In this document: positions 5,151 through 50,476 of the stretch, piece after piece
Numbering within the stretch: position 1 is the stretch's first letter
Layout: every line of letters starts with the position of its first letter
Assembly (NCBI GenBank): GCA_018651085.1
Contig: JABIEQ010000014.1
Location: 15,178 to 79,177, forward strand
DNA: 64,000 bases
DNA from: Candidatus Magasanikiibacteriota bacterium
GTDB lineage: Bacteria > Patescibacteriota > Patescibacteriia > Magasanikbacterales > UBA922
Direction of reading: 5' to 3'
Notes under the pieces: model-generated
What the model was told of the DNA's origin: nothing
Database searches by the model: none
Seen by the model: the letters and a program-made list of their open reading frames with translations, nothing else
Position numbers and translations under genes: made by a program

Positions 5151-6584
5151 ATGGAACTTAATGCACTTACAATCAAACAAGCCACTACAGGACTCCAAAA
5201 TAAGGAGTTTTCTTCAGTTGAATTGACATCTGCATGCATTAATCGCATTAAAAAGAGAAATAGTGACATTAATGCATTTATTAGTGTGACTGAAGATGAA
5301 GCGATGGACGCTGCAAAAAAAGCGGATGAAGCAATAAAAAATGGAAGTAGTAAAACCCTTACAGGTATCCCATTTGGAGTAAAGGACGCCATTTGTGTTA
5401 AAGACATCCGGTCAACTGGAGGCGCAAAAATTCTTGATACCTATACACCTCCACATACAGCAACCGTTATAGAAAAGATTTTATCTGAAGGTGCTGTTCT
5501 CGTTGGAAAGCAAAACTGCGATGCTTTTGGGCATGGAGCAAGTAATGAGAACTCCATGTATGGGCCAGTTAAAAATCCTCATGATACAACAAAGGTAGCC
5601 GGAGGTTCTTCAGGTGGCTCAGCTGCCGCACTTGCTGACAATCAATGCCTTTTTTCTATTGCAGAAGACACTGGTGGATCAATTCGTCAACCAGCGAGTC
5701 TTTGTGGTGTTGCGGGTCTTCGCCCAAGTTATGGGAGAAATTCGAGGTACGGGATCATGCCAATGGCAAGTTCTTTAGATACTGTGGGACCAATGGCAAA
5801 AACAATAGAGGATATTGCTATATTGATGGAAGTTATGGCCGGAAACGATAAAAAAGACGCCACAACGGTAAATCAAGAAGTGCCAATGTACACAAAAGAG
5901 ATAATAAAAGACATTTCAGGCATGAAAATTGGGGTTCCAAAAGAATACATGGAACTTGAAGGTATGGATGAAGAAGTGAAACATATCATTGAAAAACAAA
6001 TTGAAGCATTAAAAAAGATGGGATGTAAGATAGAGCCCATTTCTTTACCACATACAAAATATGCTGTTCCTGTGTATTACATTGTAGTTCCGAGTGAAGA
6101 CAGTTCAAACATGGGAAGACTTGATGCTATTAGATATGGGGTTCAAGAAAAAGGGGATTCTCTTTATGACGTATATGCAAACAGTAGACGTAATGGTTTT
6201 CCAGAAGAAGTAAAAAGACGGATCATGGTTGGAACATATGCCCTTTCAGCTGGATACTATGATGCGTATTATAAAAAAGCACAAAAAGTACGAACCCTTA
6301 TTAGACAAGATTTTGAGAATGCCTTTTCAAAGGTAGACCTTTTAGTAACACCAACGTCTCCTTTTCCTGCATTTGGTCTTGGTGAAAAAAAAGATGATAT
6401 TATTTCAATGTATTTAGCTGATGTGTTTGTAAGTCCAGGGGCAGTTGCTGGTATCCCAGGATTATCTGTTCCCGTTGGGAACACTAAAGCAAGACTTCCT
6501 GTGGGTCTTCAAGTAATGGGACCACGGTTAGCAGAAGGAAGAGTATTACAACTTGGGCACCATATTCAACAAGCACAATCATAA
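5151..6584 (+). CDS. gatA: Asp-tRNA(Asn)/Glu-tRNA(Gln) amidotransferase subunit A
   Basis: Amidase signature GGSSGGSAAALA and a Ser-cisSer-Lys region, 477 aa, adjacent to gatC. Confidence 0.9.
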   Translation: MELNALTIKQATTGLQNKEFSSVELTSACINRIKKRNSDINAFISVTEDEAMDAAKKADEAIKNGSSKTLTGIPFGVKDAICVKDIRSTGGAKILDTYTPPHTATVIEKILSEGAVLVGKQNCDAFGHGASNENSMYGPVKNPHDTTKVAGGSSGGSAAALADNQCLFSIAEDTGGSIRQPASLCGVAGLRPSYGRNSRYGIMPMASSLDTVGPMAKTIEDIAILMEVMAGNDKKDATTVNQEVPMYTKEIIKDISGMKIGVPKEYMELEGMDEEVKHIIEKQIEALKKMGCKIEPISLPHTKYAVPVYYIVVPSEDSSNMGRLDAIRYGVQEKGDSLYDVYANSRRNGFPEEVKRRIMVGTYALSAGYYDAYYKKAQKVRTLIRQDFENAFSKVDLLVTPTSPFPAFGLGEKKDDIISMYLADVFVSPGAVAGIPGLSVPVGNTKARLPVGLQVMGPRLAEGRVLQLGHHIQQAQS

Positions 6585-18926: not shown

Positions 18927-19063
18927 AGATAAAGTTAATATATATAGAAGTATAACATGTTTAAGAAAGCTACTCTATAATACAGTTGACAAAACAATGT
19001 GAAAAAGATAGGTTTGAGATAAGAAACTACAGAAGCCAACACGCTTCGAACCAAGAGGAGGGA

Positions 19064-19306
19064 ATGAGAGTACGTGCAAATATGGGGCTTGAGGAGTGGA
19101 ACAACCTGAAAGTCGGGGATACGATCGAGGACAACATCCGGAATACCTGGGAGGTCATTAAAGAAAGTGAAAAGTCCTTAGGTCAGTCAAAGGTGTTCAC
19201 CTTCAAGACTTCTGAGGGGGATATGCAGGATCTCGTGATGGCTCGAGGTATCATCATTGCCTTTGAAAGCATTGACGCCTTCCTCGACCTGAACACCCTG
19301 CAGTAA
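19064..19306 (+). CDS. small G+C-rich hypothetical protein (81 aa)
   Basis: AGGAGG RBS 6 nt upstream of the ATG. Its composition is clearly more G+C-rich than the neighbouring genes. It is followed by a GC-rich hairpin. Confidence 0.45.
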   Translation: MRVRANMGLEEWNNLKVGDTIEDNIRNTWEVIKESEKSLGQSKVFTFKTSEGDMQDLVMARGIIIAFESIDAFLDLNTLQ

Positions 19307-19347
19307 CCCCGCCGCAGGTCGACCCGCCGAAAAGTCCCACCAAACCT

Positions 19348-19383
19348 ACTCGTCCGGGCCTTCGAAAAGAGGTCCGGACGAGT
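19348..19383 (+). terminator. GC-rich stem-loop (actcgtccgg...ccggacgagt)
   Basis: A 10-bp perfect stem with a 16-nt loop immediately after the GC-rich small ORF. Confidence 0.5.
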
Positions 19384-19402
19384 AAAGAAAAAAATAAAAA
19401 AT

Positions 19403-22044: not shown

Positions 22045-23121
22045 ATGAAAGTTATTTTTTCTGGCGGGGGAACTTTAGGGCCAGTGACACCCTTACTTGC
22101 AATAAAAGACATTATAGAAACAACATATAAGGAGGCCTCATTTTTTTGGGTTGGAACAAGACATGGACCAGAAAAGATGCTGGTGGAGAAAAAAGGTATA
22201 CCATTTCAAACAATTAGTGCCGGAAAATTTAGACGGTACAAATCATTTCAAAATGTCCTTGCTCCATTTCGTCTAAGCTTTGGTTTTCTACAGTCTCTTA
22301 TAATTATGTGGAAAGAAAAACCAGACATGTGTATCTCTGTCGGAGGATTTGTATCAGTCCCACTTCACGCTGCTGCCTGGCTGTTTGGGGTAAAAACATG
22401 GATTCATCAACAAGATGTACAAGTGGGCCTATCAAATAAACTCATGGCGCCAATAGCAACGATAATAACAATTGCCCTAAAGGCACATACCGCAAGTTTT
22501 CCTAAAAGAAAAACAACATGGATTGGGAACCCTATAAGACAAGACATTCTCACAGGGGACAAGGAAAAAGCAAGAACATTATTTCACTTAAAAAAAGAGA
22601 TTCCCGTAGTGTTTGTCACTGGTGGAGGAACAGGATCCCAACGAGTAAATCAACTTGTCGTTGAAGCAGTGGGGGATTTAGAAGGAATTTGTCAGGTTAT
22701 TCACTTATCTGGAAAAAACAGACCACAAGAGTTAGTCAATAATGCAGAAAGACATTTTGATTATTATCAAGTGCACCAGTTTTTTACGAATGAAATGAAA
22801 GAAGCCTACGCCATTGCAGACATTGTTATTTCTCGAGGAGGATTTGGTACCATTGCAGAAGTTGCAGCTCTTAAAAAACCAACTATTCTTATACCAAAGC
22901 CAGGGCATCAAGAAGAAAATGTCCAGTTTCTAGCAGATCAAGACGCGGTTATCCTTATGAACGAAACAACATCAGATGGGCATGGATTAGCAAAAGTAAT
23001 AAAGGAACTATTAGCACATAAAAAAGAAACAAAAGAGATGGGAGAAAGATTCTCCAAAGTGTTACCACAAGCAAAAGAAAAAGAAATTATACATGTAATA
23101 AAAGAGTTATATGGAACATAG
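22045..23121 (+). CDS. murG: undecaprenyldiphospho-muramoylpentapeptide beta-N-acetylglucosaminyltransferase
   Basis: N-terminal GGGTLGPVTP loop and C-terminal VFVTGGGTGSQ, GT28 family, adjacent to ftsW. Confidence 0.85.
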   Translation: MKVIFSGGGTLGPVTPLLAIKDIIETTYKEASFFWVGTRHGPEKMLVEKKGIPFQTISAGKFRRYKSFQNVLAPFRLSFGFLQSLIIMWKEKPDMCISVGGFVSVPLHAAAWLFGVKTWIHQQDVQVGLSNKLMAPIATIITIALKAHTASFPKRKTTWIGNPIRQDILTGDKEKARTLFHLKKEIPVVFVTGGGTGSQRVNQLVVEAVGDLEGICQVIHLSGKNRPQELVNNAERHFDYYQVHQFFTNEMKEAYAIADIVISRGGFGTIAEVAALKKPTILIPKPGHQEENVQFLADQDAVILMNETTSDGHGLAKVIKELLAHKKETKEMGERFSKVLPQAKEKEIIHVIKELYGT

Positions 23122-23902
23122 AAAACATAGAGAAAAAGAGGGCCAAATATATGAACAATTAAAAGAAAATGCCTCATTTAAACGAGTTGCTCGTAGTTTT
23201 GAAATATACCAAAAAGCATTACAAGAAGAAGGTGCTGACATAGAAGCACTAAAAAATCGGATGCATGAAGTATATCAGGCAAAGATAAGTACAGATACAA
23301 TAAAAGAAAAAGGAAAGACAAGAGCATTGGAATACACTGAGTCAAATATTCCATTTTTTACGTACGCACTTACACAAGCAGAACAAGGAACTTTCACAAT
23401 GGAGGAATTTACAAAAGAAAGTATTCGTATGGGGGTAGCAGAAACTCTGTTAGAAAATTGGGCACCCAAAATTGGAAAAGGGGAGGGTGGAGAAATACAT
23501 ATAAATGAACTAATGTACTATACAGAAGAAAAAGACGGCAAAGTGTCAGTGCATATAAATCCAAGTGGGGTGAAAAGTGAAAACCTCATCCCTAAAGTGT
23601 TAGAAGGATTTCAAATGATCGCAAAATCTATAAAAGAAGGAACTCTTACATCAGACACCGTATCAATGACTTCTTGGCTTTTAAACAAGGGATTTGAACC
23701 TACAGTCAAAATGCTATTTCCAAAGGCCAATCTTCATTTTGAAGAACTACCTGACGAAGAGAGAGGAGTTGCTAACATACAAAACTTAGCACTTACCTTT
23801 AATGGAAGATCTCTTAATGAATTTTTAAAAACAGGACAACGTCCACCAGTACGAAGACTTACCCTCTCAGCAGATGAATTTGTAGGGGCATTAGCAGCAT
23901 AA
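23111..23902 (+). CDS. hypothetical protein
   Basis: A 263-aa ORF. No motif recognised. Confidence 0.4.
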   Translation: MEHRKHREKEGQIYEQLKENASFKRVARSFEIYQKALQEEGADIEALKNRMHEVYQAKISTDTIKEKGKTRALEYTESNIPFFTYALTQAEQGTFTMEEFTKESIRMGVAETLLENWAPKIGKGEGGEIHINELMYYTEEKDGKVSVHINPSGVKSENLIPKVLEGFQMIAKSIKEGTLTSDTVSMTSWLLNKGFEPTVKMLFPKANLHFEELPDEERGVANIQNLALTFNGRSLNEFLKTGQRPPVRRLTLSADEFVGALAA

Positions 23903-23999
23903 AATACGCTTAATGTAGTCAATATTTAGCAAACTAGACATATACCCCTTGACAAACATAGTTAAGTGTGCTATATTCTTATATCGATGAATGAAGCAG

Positions 24000-24690
24000 C
24001 TGTGTGATTACCTTTTGGTGCTTGTATAAAGAAGCCTCAAAAGGTAGTCGCACGTATGCGGTTGCCTCTCGGTGTGGGAGCTGGTCCTAATAAAACCCCA
24101 AAGAGGGTATCGACCTGACCTATCCTTCCCCGGGATTATGCTAATAGTTAAGGTGAGAGATGAATCTCTCTTTCCACAGTCTCGACTCCTCGCCAAGGAG
24201 TTCGTTGCTGAAAAAGGCTTTTTCTACATTGTGCTCGCGAGCACTCTAAGTAGGGATTGCACGTAATCCAGAATCCACTACTGGCTTCATGCCCGTTGAT
24301 CTTCCCGATCCTGGGAAAGAGAGTGGACTGGGACCTATCAGTTGTTTTTAGGTCAGTGCCTGGCACTGAACAACTGATTTGTACTCTGAAAAGGCGTCGA
24401 GGGAGAGCCGATCTCTCGAACCAATAGCCAGTGAGTATAGTCGAAGAGATAAGGACTTGGCAGTCCGATGCTCCGTTGGCCCGTGGCTCTTGTTCTTTGT
24501 TATCCTGGCGGTATTTGACCTACTGCTGGAAGGTACTATTACTGTGGAGCGTTTGCTCTCGAGCGTCGTGGGGTTTCAATACCCTCCGAAACTCTCGAGG
24601 TTGTAACGTGGTCAACGGCGGTGGGGGAAGCGCAAGCTTTCTCCGCCGTCTCCGCTCATCTCTTTTGTATATCTCAAAGTGAGGTACATA
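24000..24690. ncRNA. large G+C-rich non-coding region, candidate structured RNA of unknown class
   Basis: About 690 nt with stop codons in all six frames (longest ORFs under 85 aa, mutually overlapping). It is strongly G+C-rich compared with its surroundings and dense in palindromes and hairpins (e.g. 24331-24371, two CTCGAG copies bracketing a T-arm-like GGGGTTTCAATACCCTCC). It is bounded by a perfect palindromic terminator at 24701-24728. No RNase P, tmRNA, group I or group II signature motifs were found on either strand. Confidence 0.45.
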
Positions 24691-24700
24691 AAAGAAAGTA

Positions 24701-24728
24701 AAAAAACATGAATATATTCATGTTTTTT
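24701..24728. terminator. perfect palindromic bidirectional terminator (aaaaaacatgaatat/atattcatgtttttt)
   Basis: A 14-bp perfect inverted repeat flanked by an A-run and a T-run. It lies downstream of tRNA-Lys (minus) and of the GC-rich RNA region. Confidence 0.7.
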
Positions 24729-24792
24729 TGTTTTTAATATTATAATCATTTCAAAAGAAAAACACATCAAATATCTTGATGTGTTTTTTCAG

Positions 24793-24865
24793 TGACCCCG
24801 CTGGGGCTCGAACCCAGGACCATTAGCTTAAAAGGCTACTGCTCTACCAGCTGAGCTACAGGGTC
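24793..24865 (-). tRNA. tRNA-Lys (anticodon UUU)
   Basis: The reverse complement folds as acceptor GACCCTG/CGGGGTC, D-arm TAGCTCAGCTGGTAGAGCA, anticodon loop CTTTTAA, T-arm CTGGGTTCGAGCCCCAG. No CCA is encoded. Confidence 0.85.
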
Positions 24866-27587: not shown

Positions 27588-28160
27588 ATGTTACAAAAAA
27601 CCTATCTCACAAAGCTTAAAAAGGAAATGCTCGGATACGCAGAAAAAAGAAGAGCTATTATCAAGACATCAGACGATGGCTTATATTTATCAAAACGATC
27701 AATTTTTGCAATGCATAGAGGAAACATGAAAGAAGCAAAACAAAAAATCGACGAAGCAGAAAAAAAATTAAAAGCGGTTGCACTAAAATACAAAAAAGGA
27801 TCCGGAGCAAAAAAAGAAGGATCATATAAAGCAGCGCTTGAAGAATATGTTGAAGCAAAGCTCTTATATCAATTTATCTCTAAAGGAAAGATAGGACAAA
27901 TTAAAGAGATAAATGTACCTACAAGTATCTATATTGCTGGGCTATGTGATGTTCCAGGGGAACTGTATCGCTATGCAATAAAAGCAGCAACAAACAATGA
28001 TATAAAGACTGTTCATGCATGTTCTGAAATGGCACAAGAAATCATTGGAGAACTTATTGAATTTAACCTCACAAGTTATTTACGAAATAAATTTGATCAA
28101 GCAAAAGGAGCTGTTCGAAAAATCGAGCATGTTGTATATGAAGTGAGCTTAAGAAAATGA
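27588..28160 (+). CDS. hypothetical helical protein
   Basis: 190 aa, lysine-rich and helical. Family not recognised. Confidence 0.35.
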   Translation: MLQKTYLTKLKKEMLGYAEKRRAIIKTSDDGLYLSKRSIFAMHRGNMKEAKQKIDEAEKKLKAVALKYKKGSGAKKEGSYKAALEEYVEAKLLYQFISKGKIGQIKEINVPTSIYIAGLCDVPGELYRYAIKAATNNDIKTVHACSEMAQEIIGELIEFNLTSYLRNKFDQAKGAVRKIEHVVYEVSLRK

Positions 28161-31056: not shown

Positions 31057-31887
31057 TCAGATGATGCCGTAAACCAACTCTTCGTAGACAGAGGTCATGG
31101 CATGAGTGACCTCACCGACCTGATCCGCTCGCAGGCCAAAGAGCGGTGCTGCCGCAAAGATCCCCCAGAGTCGCAGGTAGAGATCGGTGTGGGCAATCGT
31201 CACTTCGTCTGCTTGAAGGCCAAAGAAGGCCTCAACGAAGATCTCGATCGACCCAAGACGAAGCGCCTTGACGTGTTCAACCGAAACCGTACGCGGATCT
31301 GAGTAATCGTAGAGTTTCTTCGCTACGATTGTTTGTTGATCTTGGGCAAAAAGCCATTCCCCGAACTCCTCGGGGTCCACAAGTTCCCCACTAGGAATCT
31401 TCCTAGTCTGCTGGAAGGAAGTTAACTTCATCTGTAGATTCCGAAAGGTCTCGAAGAGAAGTTCTTGCGGAGTGAAGTCAAAGAGTGTTGCTCGATCCAT
31501 CATGAGGAGTGCCGTTTCACCGGCAACCGCGTCGGCGTGATCCACATGGTACAGCCCGTCGACAGACCTGTTTTCAAGAAGGCAAGCAAGACGAGCAAGA
31601 TCAGTCTGATCGAGACCAAACTGGATGAGATCGACTCCGTTGAGCCCAAAGGACGTCTTCAACTCTCTCAGCTCCCTTCTTGTCAGATGCTCAGGAGCAA
31701 AGAGATTCTTGTAGTGCGCCGCCGCCGCCTCTGCCGCCGCCCTTTCTTCCTCGAGCGTAGAGACCTCTTTTTCCTTGTGGAAGTAGACTCCTACGGTCGT
31801 CGAAAGAAAAAACAGGGCCAGCAAAGAAGCCAGGACAGCGATGACGAGAGTGATGATGGTGATGGGGGCCATGGGGGGTGTCTCCAA
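31057..31887 (-). CDS. G+C-rich single-pass membrane protein, hypothetical (276 aa)
   Basis: Clean ORF with a GGAGA RBS and an N-terminal TM helix (ITIITLVIAVLASLLALFFL). Its composition is markedly more G+C-rich than the genome background. No known domain. Confidence 0.6.
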   Translation of the reverse strand: METPPMAPITIITLVIAVLASLLALFFLSTTVGVYFHKEKEVSTLEEERAAAEAAAAHYKNLFAPEHLTRRELRELKTSFGLNGVDLIQFGLDQTDLARLACLLENRSVDGLYHVDHADAVAGETALLMMDRATLFDFTPQELLFETFRNLQMKLTSFQQTRKIPSGELVDPEEFGEWLFAQDQQTIVAKKLYDYSDPRTVSVEHVKALRLGSIEIFVEAFFGLQADEVTIAHTDLYLRLWGIFAAAPLFGLRADQVGEVTHAMTSVYEELVYGII

Positions 31888-32164: not shown

Positions 32165-32953
32165 CTACGATGAGGGAGTATCCTCGTCGAGGTCAATCAT
32201 GGGAAGTTCCTCCTCGGGGGCAAATTCCGTGTCGGCCATGGTGACACGGTAGACCACGCTGAGAAACAGCTGAACTTTCTCTTTCTCGAGAAGCTCAAGC
32301 GAGGACAACATAAGCCCCGAGAGGCCTCCTGCCCTGTATCGAGCCGCCGTCTTGAAGTAGCGTTCGAACTGTGAGGCCGTAAGGGGGGCGATCGGCGAAA
32401 GCCCGTACCATTGCCGAGCCAGAGCCTCTTCCCGCTTTGAGCGGTAGGCATCAAGTTCCTCAGGGGTGAAGCTCGTCGCCGTGTATCTGCCCGGCTTTCC
32501 AGTTCGCTCCTCCATGTTTCTGATCTTGGCCAGTTCCTCGGCGTCCTTGTCCGTAAGGTAGGAAGCCATCTCTTCCGAGAGGGGATACTTCCCTTTGAAC
32601 CTGCCTCGGTATTGACTCATGCAGACGTAGAGAAAGCCCAGGAGTTCGTCCCCTGAGAGCCCTTTCGAACCGGCGGTGTCCATCGCGAGAAGAACTGTCC
32701 CCAGGAGTCCTTCACCCTGCATCTTCTTTGAGACAGGGCCGCCATGAGACAATGTCTCGTTCGCTTGCTCCAGGCGCCGGATTTCCCCTCTCATCCAATC
32801 GGCGTCCTTTTCAAGGGACGCGTAAGAGGCCTCAAGAGGATCAATAGTAGCTCTTAGTTGTTCGAGCCCCGGTTTGTACCAGAGGTAGTACGCAACCACC
32901 GCTTGCAACGCACCGAAGCCGAGGACGACCAAGATGGCCATTGTAATGCTCAT
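32165..32953 (-). CDS. G+C-rich single-pass membrane protein with a coiled-coil, hypothetical (262 aa)
   Basis: N-terminal TM helix (MAILVVLGFGALQAVVAYYLWY) and a coiled-coil region. G+C-rich. No known domain. Confidence 0.6.
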   Translation of the reverse strand: MSITMAILVVLGFGALQAVVAYYLWYKPGLEQLRATIDPLEASYASLEKDADWMRGEIRRLEQANETLSHGGPVSKKMQGEGLLGTVLLAMDTAGSKGLSGDELLGFLYVCMSQYRGRFKGKYPLSEEMASYLTDKDAEELAKIRNMEERTGKPGRYTATSFTPEELDAYRSKREEALARQWYGLSPIAPLTASQFERYFKTAARYRAGGLSGLMLSSLELLEKEKVQLFLSVVYRVTMADTEFAPEEELPMIDLDEDTPSS

Positions 32954-33111
32954 GTCTGAACCTTCAGGCTGGGGGAATATGAACGATAATTCCCGGTGTT
33001 GTGTGACTTATAAATAATACACTTTATTTGACTTTTGTCAATAGGAAGTATACAAAAAAAATGTAAAAGAATATTCAGAAAAAAAAGAATTTATGATATA
33101 CTTAATCCATT

Positions 33112-33794: not shown

Positions 33795-34703
33795 ATGCTT
33801 GGATTTTTACGCATCATTAAATTTACTTTTCAGAACATTGGACGAAATGTCGGTCTTTCAGTTATGACAGTACTTATTTTAGTACTGATGCTTTTGTCTG
33901 TGAATAGTCTTATTACTGTTCGTGCACTAACACAAGAAGCATCAGACGCAGTAAAAGAACAAATTGATATTAGTGTATATTTTGATCAAGAAGTAAAAGA
34001 TGAAGAAGTAGCAGAGGTAGAAGCATATGTAAATTCTTTTGAAGAAGTCAAAGAAGTCACACTCTTCTCTCGCGACGAAGTACTTACAGAATTCACAGAT
34101 AAACATAAAGATAACCAAGATATTATTTCTTCCATTGAAGAATTAGGAGAAAATCCATTTGGCCCAAGAATGACTATCAAAACCCATGAGACAGAAGATT
34201 ACGCAACGATAACAGAAGCGCTTAGTGTGCCAGAATACGATCAAGTCATTGAAGCTAAAACATTCGCTGATACAGAAAAGACTATTCAAAAAATTCAACT
34301 TATCACTTCTCAAGTAGAACGATTTAGTGCACTTCTAAGTGGTCTCTTTGGTGCCATTGCATTTATTGTTATATTTAACACCATCCGTATTGCTATTTAT
34401 ACACAACGCACAGAAATAAGTATTAAAAAGCTGGTAGGAGCAACAGATTGGTTTGTAAAAGGCCCATATATGCTCTCATCGCTCTTTTTTTCACTCTTGA
34501 GCGTCATTATAAGTTTTGCCCTTACACTCCTTGCTATACGCTTTTTAGACCCATATATAATGAGTATATTTAATGATCCACACTTCTTGACAAACTACTA
34601 CTTTTCCCATATACTAGTGCTCGCTGGGATTGAGCTCGGTGCAGTACTTATCCTCACGATTCTTTCGAGTTCTCTAGCAATGCGAAAATACCTTCGGGTA
34701 TAA
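33795..34703 (+). CDS. ftsX: cell division permease-like protein FtsX
   Basis: FtsX topology: a TM helix, a large periplasmic domain and three C-terminal TM helices. Immediately downstream of ftsE. Confidence 0.8.
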   Translation: MLGFLRIIKFTFQNIGRNVGLSVMTVLILVLMLLSVNSLITVRALTQEASDAVKEQIDISVYFDQEVKDEEVAEVEAYVNSFEEVKEVTLFSRDEVLTEFTDKHKDNQDIISSIEELGENPFGPRMTIKTHETEDYATITEALSVPEYDQVIEAKTFADTEKTIQKIQLITSQVERFSALLSGLFGAIAFIVIFNTIRIAIYTQRTEISIKKLVGATDWFVKGPYMLSSLFFSLLSVIISFALTLLAIRFLDPYIMSIFNDPHFLTNYYFSHILVLAGIELGAVLILTILSSSLAMRKYLRV

Positions 34704-34708
34704 ATTAT

Positions 34709-34779
34709 TCGGGGATCGTCTAATGGTAGGACACCAGGTTTTGGTCCTGGGTATCGGGGTTCGAATCCCTGTCCCCGAG
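34709..34779 (+). tRNA. tRNA-Gln (anticodon UUG)
   Basis: Acceptor TCGGGGA/TCCCCGA, anticodon stem CCAGG/CCTGG with loop TTTTGGT, T-arm CGGGGTTCGAATCCCTG, discriminator G. No CCA. Confidence 0.8.
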
Positions 34780-34809
34780 CAGGCGTTTACGCCTTAACAA
34801 CATAGATAT

Positions 34810-35204
34810 TCGGCGGTAGCTCAGTGGTAGAGCAGTTGGCTGTAAAAATACTTGTATGGATGTATCCATATGAACGACTAGCAGCTCTTTGTAGGAATAC
34901 AAAGATGAATAACAAGGTGAATTGCTGGAAACCCTAACAGGAGGAGCTGAGGGTAATCAGCAGCCAAGTCTGTTTTTTCCGTATCGTTTAGTATACATTC
35001 GTGTACTGACATCGGTTACAGAAAGGTTCAGAGACTATCCCTTTTGGGAGTACTGCATAACAGTTGTTATGTGGGAAGCGCCTTGCACCCCACCGTCTTA
35101 GCATGACTAAGTATTACGAGGGTGATGATATAGTCCACACTTTAGTGAAAAACTAGAGATAATGTGTAACCAATTGGTCGCCAGTTCGAATCTGGCCCGC
35201 CGAG
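34810..35204 (+). tRNA. tRNA (most likely Asn-GUU, alternatively Thr-UGU) interrupted in the anticodon loop by a group I intron
   Basis: The 5' half TCGGCGG-TA-GCTCAGTGGTAGAGC-A-GTTGG-CTGT is followed by a ~323-nt insertion, then TAA-CCAAT-TGGTC-GCCAGTTCGAATCTGGC-CCGCCGA-G. The acceptor and T arms pair perfectly. The reconstituted loop CUGUUAA equals the canonical tRNA-Asn loop. Confidence 0.8.
34844..35166 (+). other. group I self-splicing intron (no ORF) within the tRNA anticodon loop
   Basis: Canonical R element GTTCAGAGACTA (35028-35039) and S element GATATAGTCC (35127-35136) forming P7. The 5' exon ends in U. The intron ends in G. A candidate internal guide sequence GCAGCU (about 34881-34886) pairs with the exon end GGCUGU to form P1. 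The exact splice boundaries are inferred. Confidence 0.75.
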
Positions 35205-35314
35205 CAACGATGTTAGAACCATTAAAATCCGTTATATTTAGCGGATTTTTTGGAAAGTGAAATAATGTAGTATATCTAGACAAATAGGCTTTTTTTTGTT
35301 AGGATCAAGTATCT

Positions 35315-50041: not shown

Positions 50042-50051
50042 CAACAAACAA

Positions 50052-50078
50052 AAAGACATCAGATAAACTGATGTCTTT
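50052..50078 (+). terminator. rho-independent terminator (aaagacatcag-ataaa-ctgatgtcttt)
   Basis: An 11-bp perfect stem followed by T-rich sequence. Confidence 0.65.
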
Positions 50079-50139
50079 TAGTATGAAGACGATGCAGCGT
50101 GTCGACACACTCCCTTTCGGGGATGGAATCTCCATCGTC

Positions 50140-50397
50140 TTAGCCGATCTTTTGCACCGACTGGCGACCTCCGTCAATGAGCTCAAAGGTACGCAAAGAC
50201 TCAACCGCCGACTCCAACTTTGCGACAGCTTCGCCGGGGCTATCACCCCTGTAGCGAGTCTTCGCACCGAGCGCTTGCAGAATCGCGGGGTGAGTCTTCT
50301 TCCGGTCAAACCGGCAGACCCAATCCGTATCATCATGCCTTATCTTGAGACCAAAATCTCTTCTGTGCACTAGAACCTCCTTAGGTGGATCCACCAC
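50140..50397 (-). CDS. small G+C-rich hypothetical protein, weakly HicB/UPF0150-like
   Basis: The 85-aa ORF is the most protein-like of three overlapping ORFs in a G+C-rich patch. The segment GDSPGEAVAKLESAVESL resembles the GdT-eEAl-n-reA helix of HicB-type antitoxins, but the preceding PGC motif is absent. Confidence 0.3.
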   Translation of the reverse strand: MVDPPKEVLVHRRDFGLKIRHDDTDWVCRFDRKKTHPAILQALGAKTRYRGDSPGEAVAKLESAVESLRTFELIDGGRQSVQKIG

Positions 50398-50476
50398 TCC
50401 CTGTGATAGAAACCTTATACACTATAAAGAGAAAAATTGTCTTTGTCAATGCTGTTTGCTACAATTGAGCCACCAT

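Follow-up and report, generated by a model that had tools for sequence, protein, structure and literature searches.

A candidate gene for a large structured non-coding RNA in an accessory island beside tRNA-Lys of a marine Magasanikbacteria genome

Introduction

Large structured bacterial RNAs of unknown function are rare, OLE, GOLLD, ROOL and raiA being among the few, and to our knowledge none has been described from the Candidate Phyla Radiation (CPR, or Patescibacteria). Large orphan RNAs have repeatedly revealed unexpected biology, the latest example being RNA-only cages. Here we analyse a 64-kb stretch of DNA ("the window", 64,000 nt of contig JABIEQ010000014.1; positions are numbered from the first letter of the window throughout) from a metagenome-assembled genome of a marine Candidatus Magasanikbacteria (CPR/Patescibacteria), and within it a G+C-rich block, from about 24000 to about 24690, that is a candidate gene for a large structured non-coding RNA (ncRNA). 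The block had been singled out by a model working from the letters and their open reading frames (ORFs), which took it for a large structured RNA of a class it could not name (the original prediction).

OLE (Ornate, Large, Extremophilic) RNA is an abundant, ornate ncRNA of ~600 nt that forms its own transcription unit. According to the published account, it is restricted to anaerobic or extremophilic Firmicutes, contains long invariant stretches and is associated with the oap genes (PMC9723947). GOLLD is large, often exceeding 800 nt, and highly structured; the function of this bacterial ncRNA is unknown. It is carried by phages and prophages, often beside tRNA genes, and the example that has been studied comes from a marine metagenome, where it lies downstream of a tRNA (PMC12286853). 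ROOL (Rumen-Originating, Ornate, Large) is a multi-stem RNA of ~580 nt without a known protein partner, found in phages or prophages near tRNA islands, and both GOLLD and ROOL form RNA-only cages (PMC12286853). Finally, the GC-IGR and DIMPL surveys of the Breaker laboratory have used long GC-rich intergenic regions in AT-rich genomes as a source of ncRNA candidates (PMC8723152, PMC11109978).

The block shares several of these traits. Like GOLLD, it is long (~750 nt as a predicted transcript), folds strongly and lies beside a tRNA gene (tRNA-Lys) in a variable island of a marine organism; unlike GOLLD, it matches no Rfam model even at E<=10, has no flanking phage genes and belongs to a CPR bacterium. 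The hallmarks of GOLLD, which are a conserved 3' half, pseudoknots and kissing loops, are not recognisable in a block that has no known homologs. The resemblance to ROOL is one of genomic setting and size class only, again with no Rfam match. As to setting, the block adjoins tRNA-Lys and its island carries a serine-recombinase element in one relative; no phage or integrase gene is present in the island here. It differs from OLE in lacking an Rfam match and oap-type neighbours and in coming from a different phylum. The block was found by the same logic as the GC-IGR and DIMPL candidates, and singletons are a recognised outcome of those screens; the status of a "motif" in them needs homologs and covariation, and the block has neither. 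We found no report in the literature of such an RNA in Magasanikbacteria or Patescibacteria.

Results

Composition and coding status

The sharp change in composition that the original prediction placed at about 24000 and about 24690 is borne out by the GC content per 200 nt, which is 0.355-0.40 up to 23999, 0.475-0.52 over 24000-24699 and 0.355 at 24600-24799 (in outline, from 0.36 to ~0.50 and back to 0.355), in a window whose mean is 0.368. All six frames of the block are broken, as had also been said. Each holds 4-12 stops, and all three stop codons (TAA, TAG and TGA) occur in every frame, so that recoding one of them cannot open a frame; this explanation was rejected. One minus-strand frame is free of stops for 123 codons (24151-24519).

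The period-3 signal-to-noise ratio of the block is 0.3-0.45, compared with 6-21 for five real genes of the window, among them the GC-rich ORFs at 31057-31887 and 32165-32953. When 240-nt sliding windows were used, all 13 that cover the block scored below 2, against a median of 4.2 for coding sequence and 0.86 for shuffles. A search of the block's ORF fragments against Pfam and PHROG gave no match. The 123-codon stretch had three matches among 1.84 billion representative proteins, none of them real, for all three are tandem-repeat proteins in which one weak (~27-bit) match was counted up to 19 times. A 1059-residue chimera, built from every stop-free stretch of at least 30 codons in all frames, matched nothing among 5.8 billion proteins. 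The original prediction had named a degraded foreign pseudogene as the finding that would overturn it, and no frame yielded a protein match. The block shows neither the open frame nor the periodicity nor the protein similarity of a protein-coding gene or recent pseudogene, and it is non-coding.

Promoter, terminator and extent of the transcript

Immediately upstream of the block lies a sigma-70-type promoter motif with 11 of 12 consensus matches and, in addition, an extended -10 TG (Table 1). Sites with at least 11 of 12 matches number seven in the whole 64 kb, versus 2.2 expected, and the one at the block is alone in having the TG. Of the other six, some precede tRNA-Gln, the L27 gene and the small genes at 50370 and 60467, for example, which suggests that sites of this quality are genuine, strong promoters in this organism. 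Transcription is predicted to start at ~23983-23987 (about 23984).

At the other end of the block is the palindrome that the original prediction had described as a perfect 14-bp terminator. It is indeed perfect, with arms that are in fact 15 nt each and are followed by GUUUUU, and its hairpin (dG, the predicted folding free energy, -11.8; z -4.8) could act in both directions. The motifs alone thus place an upstream promoter and a downstream intrinsic terminator on the same strand, as in an independent transcription unit. A second perfect hairpin further downstream, flanked by A and U runs, serves the convergent tRNA-Lys gene as its terminator and could also stop read-through from the block RNA.

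The original prediction had left room for two adjacent RNAs. A motif scan found no internal terminator and no strong internal promoter on the plus strand of the block, so that one RNA of ~750 nt is the likelier arrangement; a helix predicted between the two ends with a probability above 0.8 also disfavours two RNAs.

Predicted fold

The dense secondary structure that had been claimed for the block is supported by folding predictions. The full-length plus strand has a minimum free energy (MFE) of -287.5 kcal/mol (z -8.0) and the minus strand one of -246 kcal/mol (z -5.3); a re-run gave z -7.15 and -4.3, respectively. For comparison, z ranged from +0.6 to -2.7 in four coding sequences of equal length: murG, the ATPase gene and two GC-rich ORFs with GC 0.53 and 0.57. 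The advantage of 40 kcal/mol that the plus strand holds over the minus strand is due to G·U pairs, which make up 33 of the 241 pairs in the plus-strand MFE structure. G·U pairs also account for 4 of 15 pairs in a hairpin capped by a GCAA tetraloop, as read from the sequence, which makes this hairpin stable on the plus strand only, and for 3 of 17 pairs in the long 5' hairpin. In the folding model, this asymmetry indicates structure or selection at the level of RNA rather than DNA palindromes.

In 120-nt windows, the folding excess is strongest at the 5' hairpin and in the 3' third (z -5 to -8.5), and z is about -3 at the palindrome of the central domain. The predicted architecture (Table 1) begins with the long 5' hairpin, which has a 6-bp base in the full-length fold and pair probabilities above 0.8, and the model would have a 5-bp closing helix tie the 5' end to the 3' region. 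The hairpins named by the original prediction all exist, several of them 3-7 nt from where it had put them. The near-perfect 18-bp palindromic hairpin assigned to 24331-24371 is made of 9 bp and 7-8 bp, its 5' side bulging out by 6-7 nt, and lies a little downstream, as do the two CTCGAG copies assigned to 24555 and 24588; the GAGAG/CUCUC hairpin is present.

A long-range helix between the complementary hairpins at 24088-24113 and 24569-24586 was considered and rejected as a by-product of a common CCC/GGG stem. Palindromic tetranucleotides (GAUC, CGCG) occur 2-3 times in the predicted hairpin loops, against an estimated ~2.4 expected, and at this chance frequency they provide no evidence for symmetric kissing loops.

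Table 1. Positions of the predicted elements of the block and of its immediate neighbours (window numbering)
Feature	Position	Strand	Details
Orphan 263-aa gene	23111-23902	+	Start overlaps murG end; only other island content
Sigma-70-type promoter	23949-23977	+	-35 TTGACA 23949-23954; 17-nt spacer; extended -10 TGcTATATT
Extended -10 element	23969-23977	+	TG 23969-23970; hexamer 23972-23977
Predicted primary transcript, candidate large structured ncRNA	23984-24735	+	~750 nt; GC-rich body 23996-24660
Closing helix	23986-23990 with 24656-24660	+	5 bp, GAUGA with UCAUC; probability >0.8
Long 5' hairpin	23996-24065	+	17-bp stem plus 4-bp tip, 6-nt 3' bulge; dG -35.2, z -7.0
Second domain, stacked hairpin	24069-24133	+	Internal loops, A-rich loop CCUAAUAAAA, tip ACCC/GGGU; fold prediction
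Central multi-branched domain	24134-24442	+	Weakest local thermodynamic support; fold prediction
GUGC-UCGCGA-GCAC hairpin in central domain	24231-24244	+	Fold prediction
Bulged palindromic hairpin in central domain	24337-24378	+	dG -17.9, z -4.3
GAGAG/CUCUC hairpin in central domain	~24399-24419	+	
Small hairpin	24446-24473	+	Predicted architecture
3' domain	24475-24616	+	Closed by GUUGGCC/GGUCAAC; 120-nt z -5.5 to -5.7
CUCGAG:CUCGAG helix in 3' domain	24558-24563 with 24594-24599	+	Around hairpin GGGGU-UUCAAU-ACCCU 24570-24585
Hairpin with GCAA tetraloop cap	24617-24650	+	15 bp; dG -26.4, z -5.8
A/U-rich hairpin before terminator	24661-24695	+	Fold prediction
Terminator-like element	24700-24735	+	Perfect 15+15-nt A/U-rich palindrome AAAAAAACAUGAAUA/UAUUCAUGUUUUUUU at 24700-24729, then GUUUUU
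Second perfect hairpin	24758-24788		13 bp, flanking A and U runs; dG -15, z -5.6
tRNA-Lys(UUU)	24792-24865	-	3' end faces block; beside ATPase, conserved in relatives, marks island edge

Searches against known RNA families

The original prediction could not recognise RNase P RNA, tmRNA or a group I or group II intron on either strand, and the Rfam scan that it called for agrees, with no family found on either strand. None of the 4227 families of Rfam 15 matches the block at gathering thresholds. In a permissive scan (E<=10, relaxed filters, 951-nt query, both strands), only four chance-level matches to unrelated small families fall within 23996-24640 (E 1.6-4.3; 14.6-16.2 bits, versus gathering scores of 35-69). 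Other weak matches (E 0.066-4.5) cover the A/U-rich terminator region, and the best of the scan is Phe_leader, with 26 bits (gathering score 55) over the A/U-rich 3' end at 24642-24732. As a positive control, the models of this library did pick up three tRNAs and a group I intron outside the block.

ARAGORN, looking for a tRNA-like domain with a tag frame, called three tRNAs and no tmRNA in the window, and Rfam gave no tmRNA match in the block. The RNase P models of Rfam, which capture the conserved P4 core, gave no match at E<=10, and the predicted transcript measures ~750 nt, compared with ~350-400 nt for RNase P RNA. No group I or group II intron core (P3-P9 or domain V) was matched by Rfam in the block, which has its own promoter and terminator and interrupts no host gene.

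Copies, relatives and homologs

The block is identical in all other copies, which come from nine further contigs (NCBI, ENA, JGI and Logan assemblies). Contigs of the organism are present in samples from 150 m depth in Saanich Inlet (JGI 3300000154 and 3300000216) and in several ENA and Logan runs. Since the same sequence with its flanks is present in at least nine independently assembled contigs, it is not an assembly artefact. Population variants found among cluster members and by ORF look-ups are 99.9-100% identical in DNA, with no change in the block. One contig (L011, ENA OREN01024332) is equivalent to window positions 22603-24165 and is 97% identical overall and exact from 22752 onward; its 44 mismatches all lie in murG (22605-22751), with no similarity upstream of that segment, and it is probably a chimeric assembly, unless recombination took place within murG at this point.

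The nearest MurG relatives are just 62-65% identical. In the four relatives with readable DNA (L006, L007, L012 and L013), the order ftsW-murG ... tRNA-Lys(UUU, minus strand)-P-type ATPase-translin is conserved; a further locus (L008) stops short of the tRNA, and that of JGI 3300072015 consists of gene calls only. A GC-rich patch at the syntenic spot in L006 was considered as a possible RNA and proved instead to be an 84-aa gene with a GGAGG. A covariance model of the 3' domain, built from the single sequence, was run against the window and five related loci and matched only itself, and blastn of the block against phage and plasmid collections gave nothing.

More distant sources were covered by seed scans, in which stop-free translations of the block served as pseudo-proteins with six degenerate 24-nt seeds per scan. 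No homolog was found in 185,579 species genomes (two scans), in viral contigs (two scans) or, apart from L011, in JGI metagenomes (one scan); two mixed exact/RY DNA patterns likewise matched nothing among the viral contigs. Such seed and pattern searches miss homologs below ~85-90% local identity and so do not exclude distant ones.

The murG to tRNA-Lys island

The block lies between the cell-division (dcw) genes and tRNA-Lys, in the interval from murG to the tRNA gene (23121-24792), which is hypervariable across Magasanikbacteria and differs in content in every related genome. In the JGI 3300072015 relative, it is occupied by an integrated mobile element, with a 602-aa serine recombinase, an SLFN/AlbA_2 protein and some ten small ORFs. 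Another relative has UmuC/UmuD-like genes and a radical SAM gene in the interval. At the block itself we looked for an att-like copy of the tRNA-Lys 3' end and for terminal inverted repeats and found neither, and there is no phage or integrase gene in this island.

The only other gene of the island encodes an orphan protein of 263 aa. Its period-3 signal of 9.2 marks it as a real coding sequence, and its GC content is host-like. The protein belongs to no family in Pfam, PHROGs, PADLOC or NCBIfam and has no homolog among 5.8 billion proteins. We considered it as a partner of the RNA and set this idea aside: with no family or homolog and an AlphaFold2 model that is too poor to use (pLDDT 49), no link to the RNA emerged.

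On the far side of tRNA-Lys, downstream of the P-type ATPase gene, is a translin-family gene (27588-28160, plus strand; Pfam PF01997, E 1e-22) whose position is conserved in relatives. Two of these relatives also carry, by a DUF1653 gene, a GC-rich non-coding segment (L012 11558-11669 and L013 12040-12151) that is 82% conserved and in inverted orientation; it has no Rfam match.

Other GC-rich islands of the window

The rule used by the original prediction, that in A+T-rich genomes G+C-rich islands without ORFs are almost always structured RNAs, fails in this window, where the other GC-rich islands are protein genes. One of them, a small gene at 18986-19390 (plus strand, GC 0.45-0.56), consists of an 80-codon ATG ORF (19064-19306) with GAGGAGG upstream, a TTGACA at 18986 and a GC-rich hairpin terminator at ~19340-19375; its period-3 signal is 4.9 and its folding z -5.1, and it has no Pfam or Rfam match. 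Another, at 50050-50450 (minus strand, GC 0.53-0.62), encodes 76 aa from a GTG start at 50370 to ~50140, behind a strong promoter at 50449 (11 of 12 matches) and an AAGGAGG, with a terminator hairpin at ~50060-50085 and no Pfam match. The GC-rich ORFs at 31057-31887 and 32165-32953 (both minus strand; 276 and 262 aa; GC 0.53-0.59) have strong codon periodicity and no Pfam family, lie behind a strong promoter at 33041 (minus strand) and look compositionally foreign. Shine-Dalgarno (SD) sequences are almost never found upstream of ordinary genes of this genome (5 of 44 start sites), which makes the GC-rich small genes that have one unusual in their own right. The L006 gene already mentioned (84 aa, 5710-5964) is also GC-rich, has a strong GGAGG and adjoins tRNA-Lys. 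The GC-rich small genes with an SD sequence may represent a distinct gene class, possibly acquired or specially translated.

The group I intron of the window (34870-35158, 68 bits in Rfam) apparently splits a tRNA gene at 34811-35207 (plus strand), with a 5' half GGCGGTAGCTCAGTGGTAGAGCAGTTGGCTGTAAA at ~34811 and a 3' half AACCAATTGGTCGCCAGTTCGAATCTGGCCCGCCGA ending at ~35207. This host tRNA was not called by ARAGORN. It lies after tRNA-Gln (34709-34780), behind a strong promoter at 34587.

Discussion

We lean towards the view that the block encodes a large structured ncRNA of ~750 nt and is a gene restricted to this lineage, set in an accessory island beside tRNA-Lys. Such a stand-alone gene on the plus strand would be transcribed from the strongest promoter-like site of the window, starting at ~23984, and transcription would end at the A/U-rich hairpin with its U-tract (~24735). 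The RNA would fold into a long 5' hairpin, a small second domain, a large central multi-branched domain, a 3' domain and a GCAA-capped hairpin, with a short helix joining its 5' end to the 3' region, and may act in trans as a folded molecule. We infer that the block is transcribed and the RNA stable, and the RNA is probably abundant. The tiny genomes of CPR bacteria leave little room for non-functional DNA, and for so reduced a genome to keep 750 non-coding bases behind a very strong promoter would speak for this reading. Because its island is filled differently in each genome and holds a recombinase element in one, the RNA gene is most likely accessory and lineage-restricted, and it was possibly brought in by a mobile element.

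Several observations weigh against this reading. The block is missing from the murG-tRNA-Lys interval of the four relatives with readable DNA, where syntenic conserved copies of the kind sought by the original prediction would be looked for. No homolog was found in any collection searched, and there is therefore no conservation or covariation to support the RNA, a lack that the original prediction itself had named as grounds for refuting it; its secondary structure is purely a prediction from thermodynamics. The folding excess is concentrated in a few long hairpins, with 120-nt z values of only ~0 to -1.5 over 24100-24260 and 24380-24540, and the central ~300 nt fold locally no better than shuffles. 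The terminator-like palindrome contains fewer than three G-C pairs and was not called by a consensus terminator scan. Support for transcription comes from motifs. The location in a variable island, finally, is equally compatible with inert acquired DNA.

That last possibility would make the block a non-functional leftover of some mobile element, or of foreign DNA of another kind, at a hot spot for integration between murG and tRNA-Lys; its hairpins would be what survives of terminators, recombination sites or palindromic repeats, and its promoter would have arisen by chance or lost its gene. The hypervariable interval, with its 602-aa serine recombinase and about ten small ORFs in one relative, would suit such an origin, as would the absence of the block from all relatives examined, the lack of homolog or conservation evidence of any kind and a central ~300 nt whose local folding z is near 0. 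We nevertheless regard it as unlikely, if less so than the other alternatives. Random foreign DNA would not be expected to reach a z of -7 to -8 with a clear plus-strand bias based on G·U pairs. The block is framed exactly by the strongest promoter of the window and a terminator. A recombinase, an att-like repeat of the tRNA-Lys 3' end and terminal inverted repeats are all missing from the island, and the block has none of the residual periodicity or protein similarity that a decayed gene would often keep. It is also unchanged across samples in a very small genome, a weak point given that the whole genome is near-clonal.

Since the other GC-rich islands of the window are genes, some of them with an SD sequence, the block could also be the mRNA for one or more very small proteins, such as that of a 29-codon ATG ORF at 24160, with its structure serving as untranslated-region or stability elements. 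The islands at 19064-19306 and 50140-50370 are small genes of this kind, with a strong promoter, an SD sequence and a terminator, a relative has its GC-rich 84-aa gene with a GGAGG at the same place beside tRNA-Lys, and the ORF at 24160 is preceded by AAGGUGAGAG, with an SD-like AAGGUGA 3 nt before the ATG. This ATG and its SD-like sequence are predicted to lie inside a high-probability helix, however, and the small ORF would cover fewer than 90 of 750 nt. The longest plus-strand ATG ORF has 42 codons, no 240-nt window of the block gives a period-3 signal (the 80-aa gene gives 4.9), and there is no similarity to the other small GC-rich proteins or to any protein, which together make an mRNA improbable. 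We give still less credence, and indeed very little, to the idea that the block belongs to a known family (RNase P RNA, tmRNA, group I or II intron, GOLLD, ROOL, OLE, HEARO or raiA) and has diverged or been rearranged so far that covariance models miss it. RNAs of CPR bacteria are often divergent, and the size and tRNA-adjacent setting are like those of GOLLD and ROOL (PMC12286853). Yet 4227 Rfam families produced only the four chance-level matches inside 23996-24640, the library does detect the window's group I intron and three tRNAs, ARAGORN reported no tmRNA, and RNase P RNA and tmRNA reach only about half of the 750 nt.

If the block is, as we favour, a gene for a structured ncRNA, our best guess by analogy is that the RNA would work as a scaffold, either protein-independent or as a ribonucleoprotein, in the manner of GOLLD and ROOL, and not as a base-pairing regulator; this guess draws only on how large the RNA is, on its lack of long unstructured stretches and on the genomic setting. 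It is tempting to go further and see here the founder of a new class of large ornate CPR RNAs, with no other member sampled so far, abundant, island-borne and perhaps self-assembling, with a GOLLD/ROOL-like lifestyle and no relation to either; we consider this doubtful. The block is a singleton candidate that is new to all libraries searched and not a demonstrated new class, and its value is that of a well-delimited candidate with exact coordinates. Even so, an RNA of 750 nt behind the strongest promoter of 64 kb in a CPR genome would be a worthwhile target.

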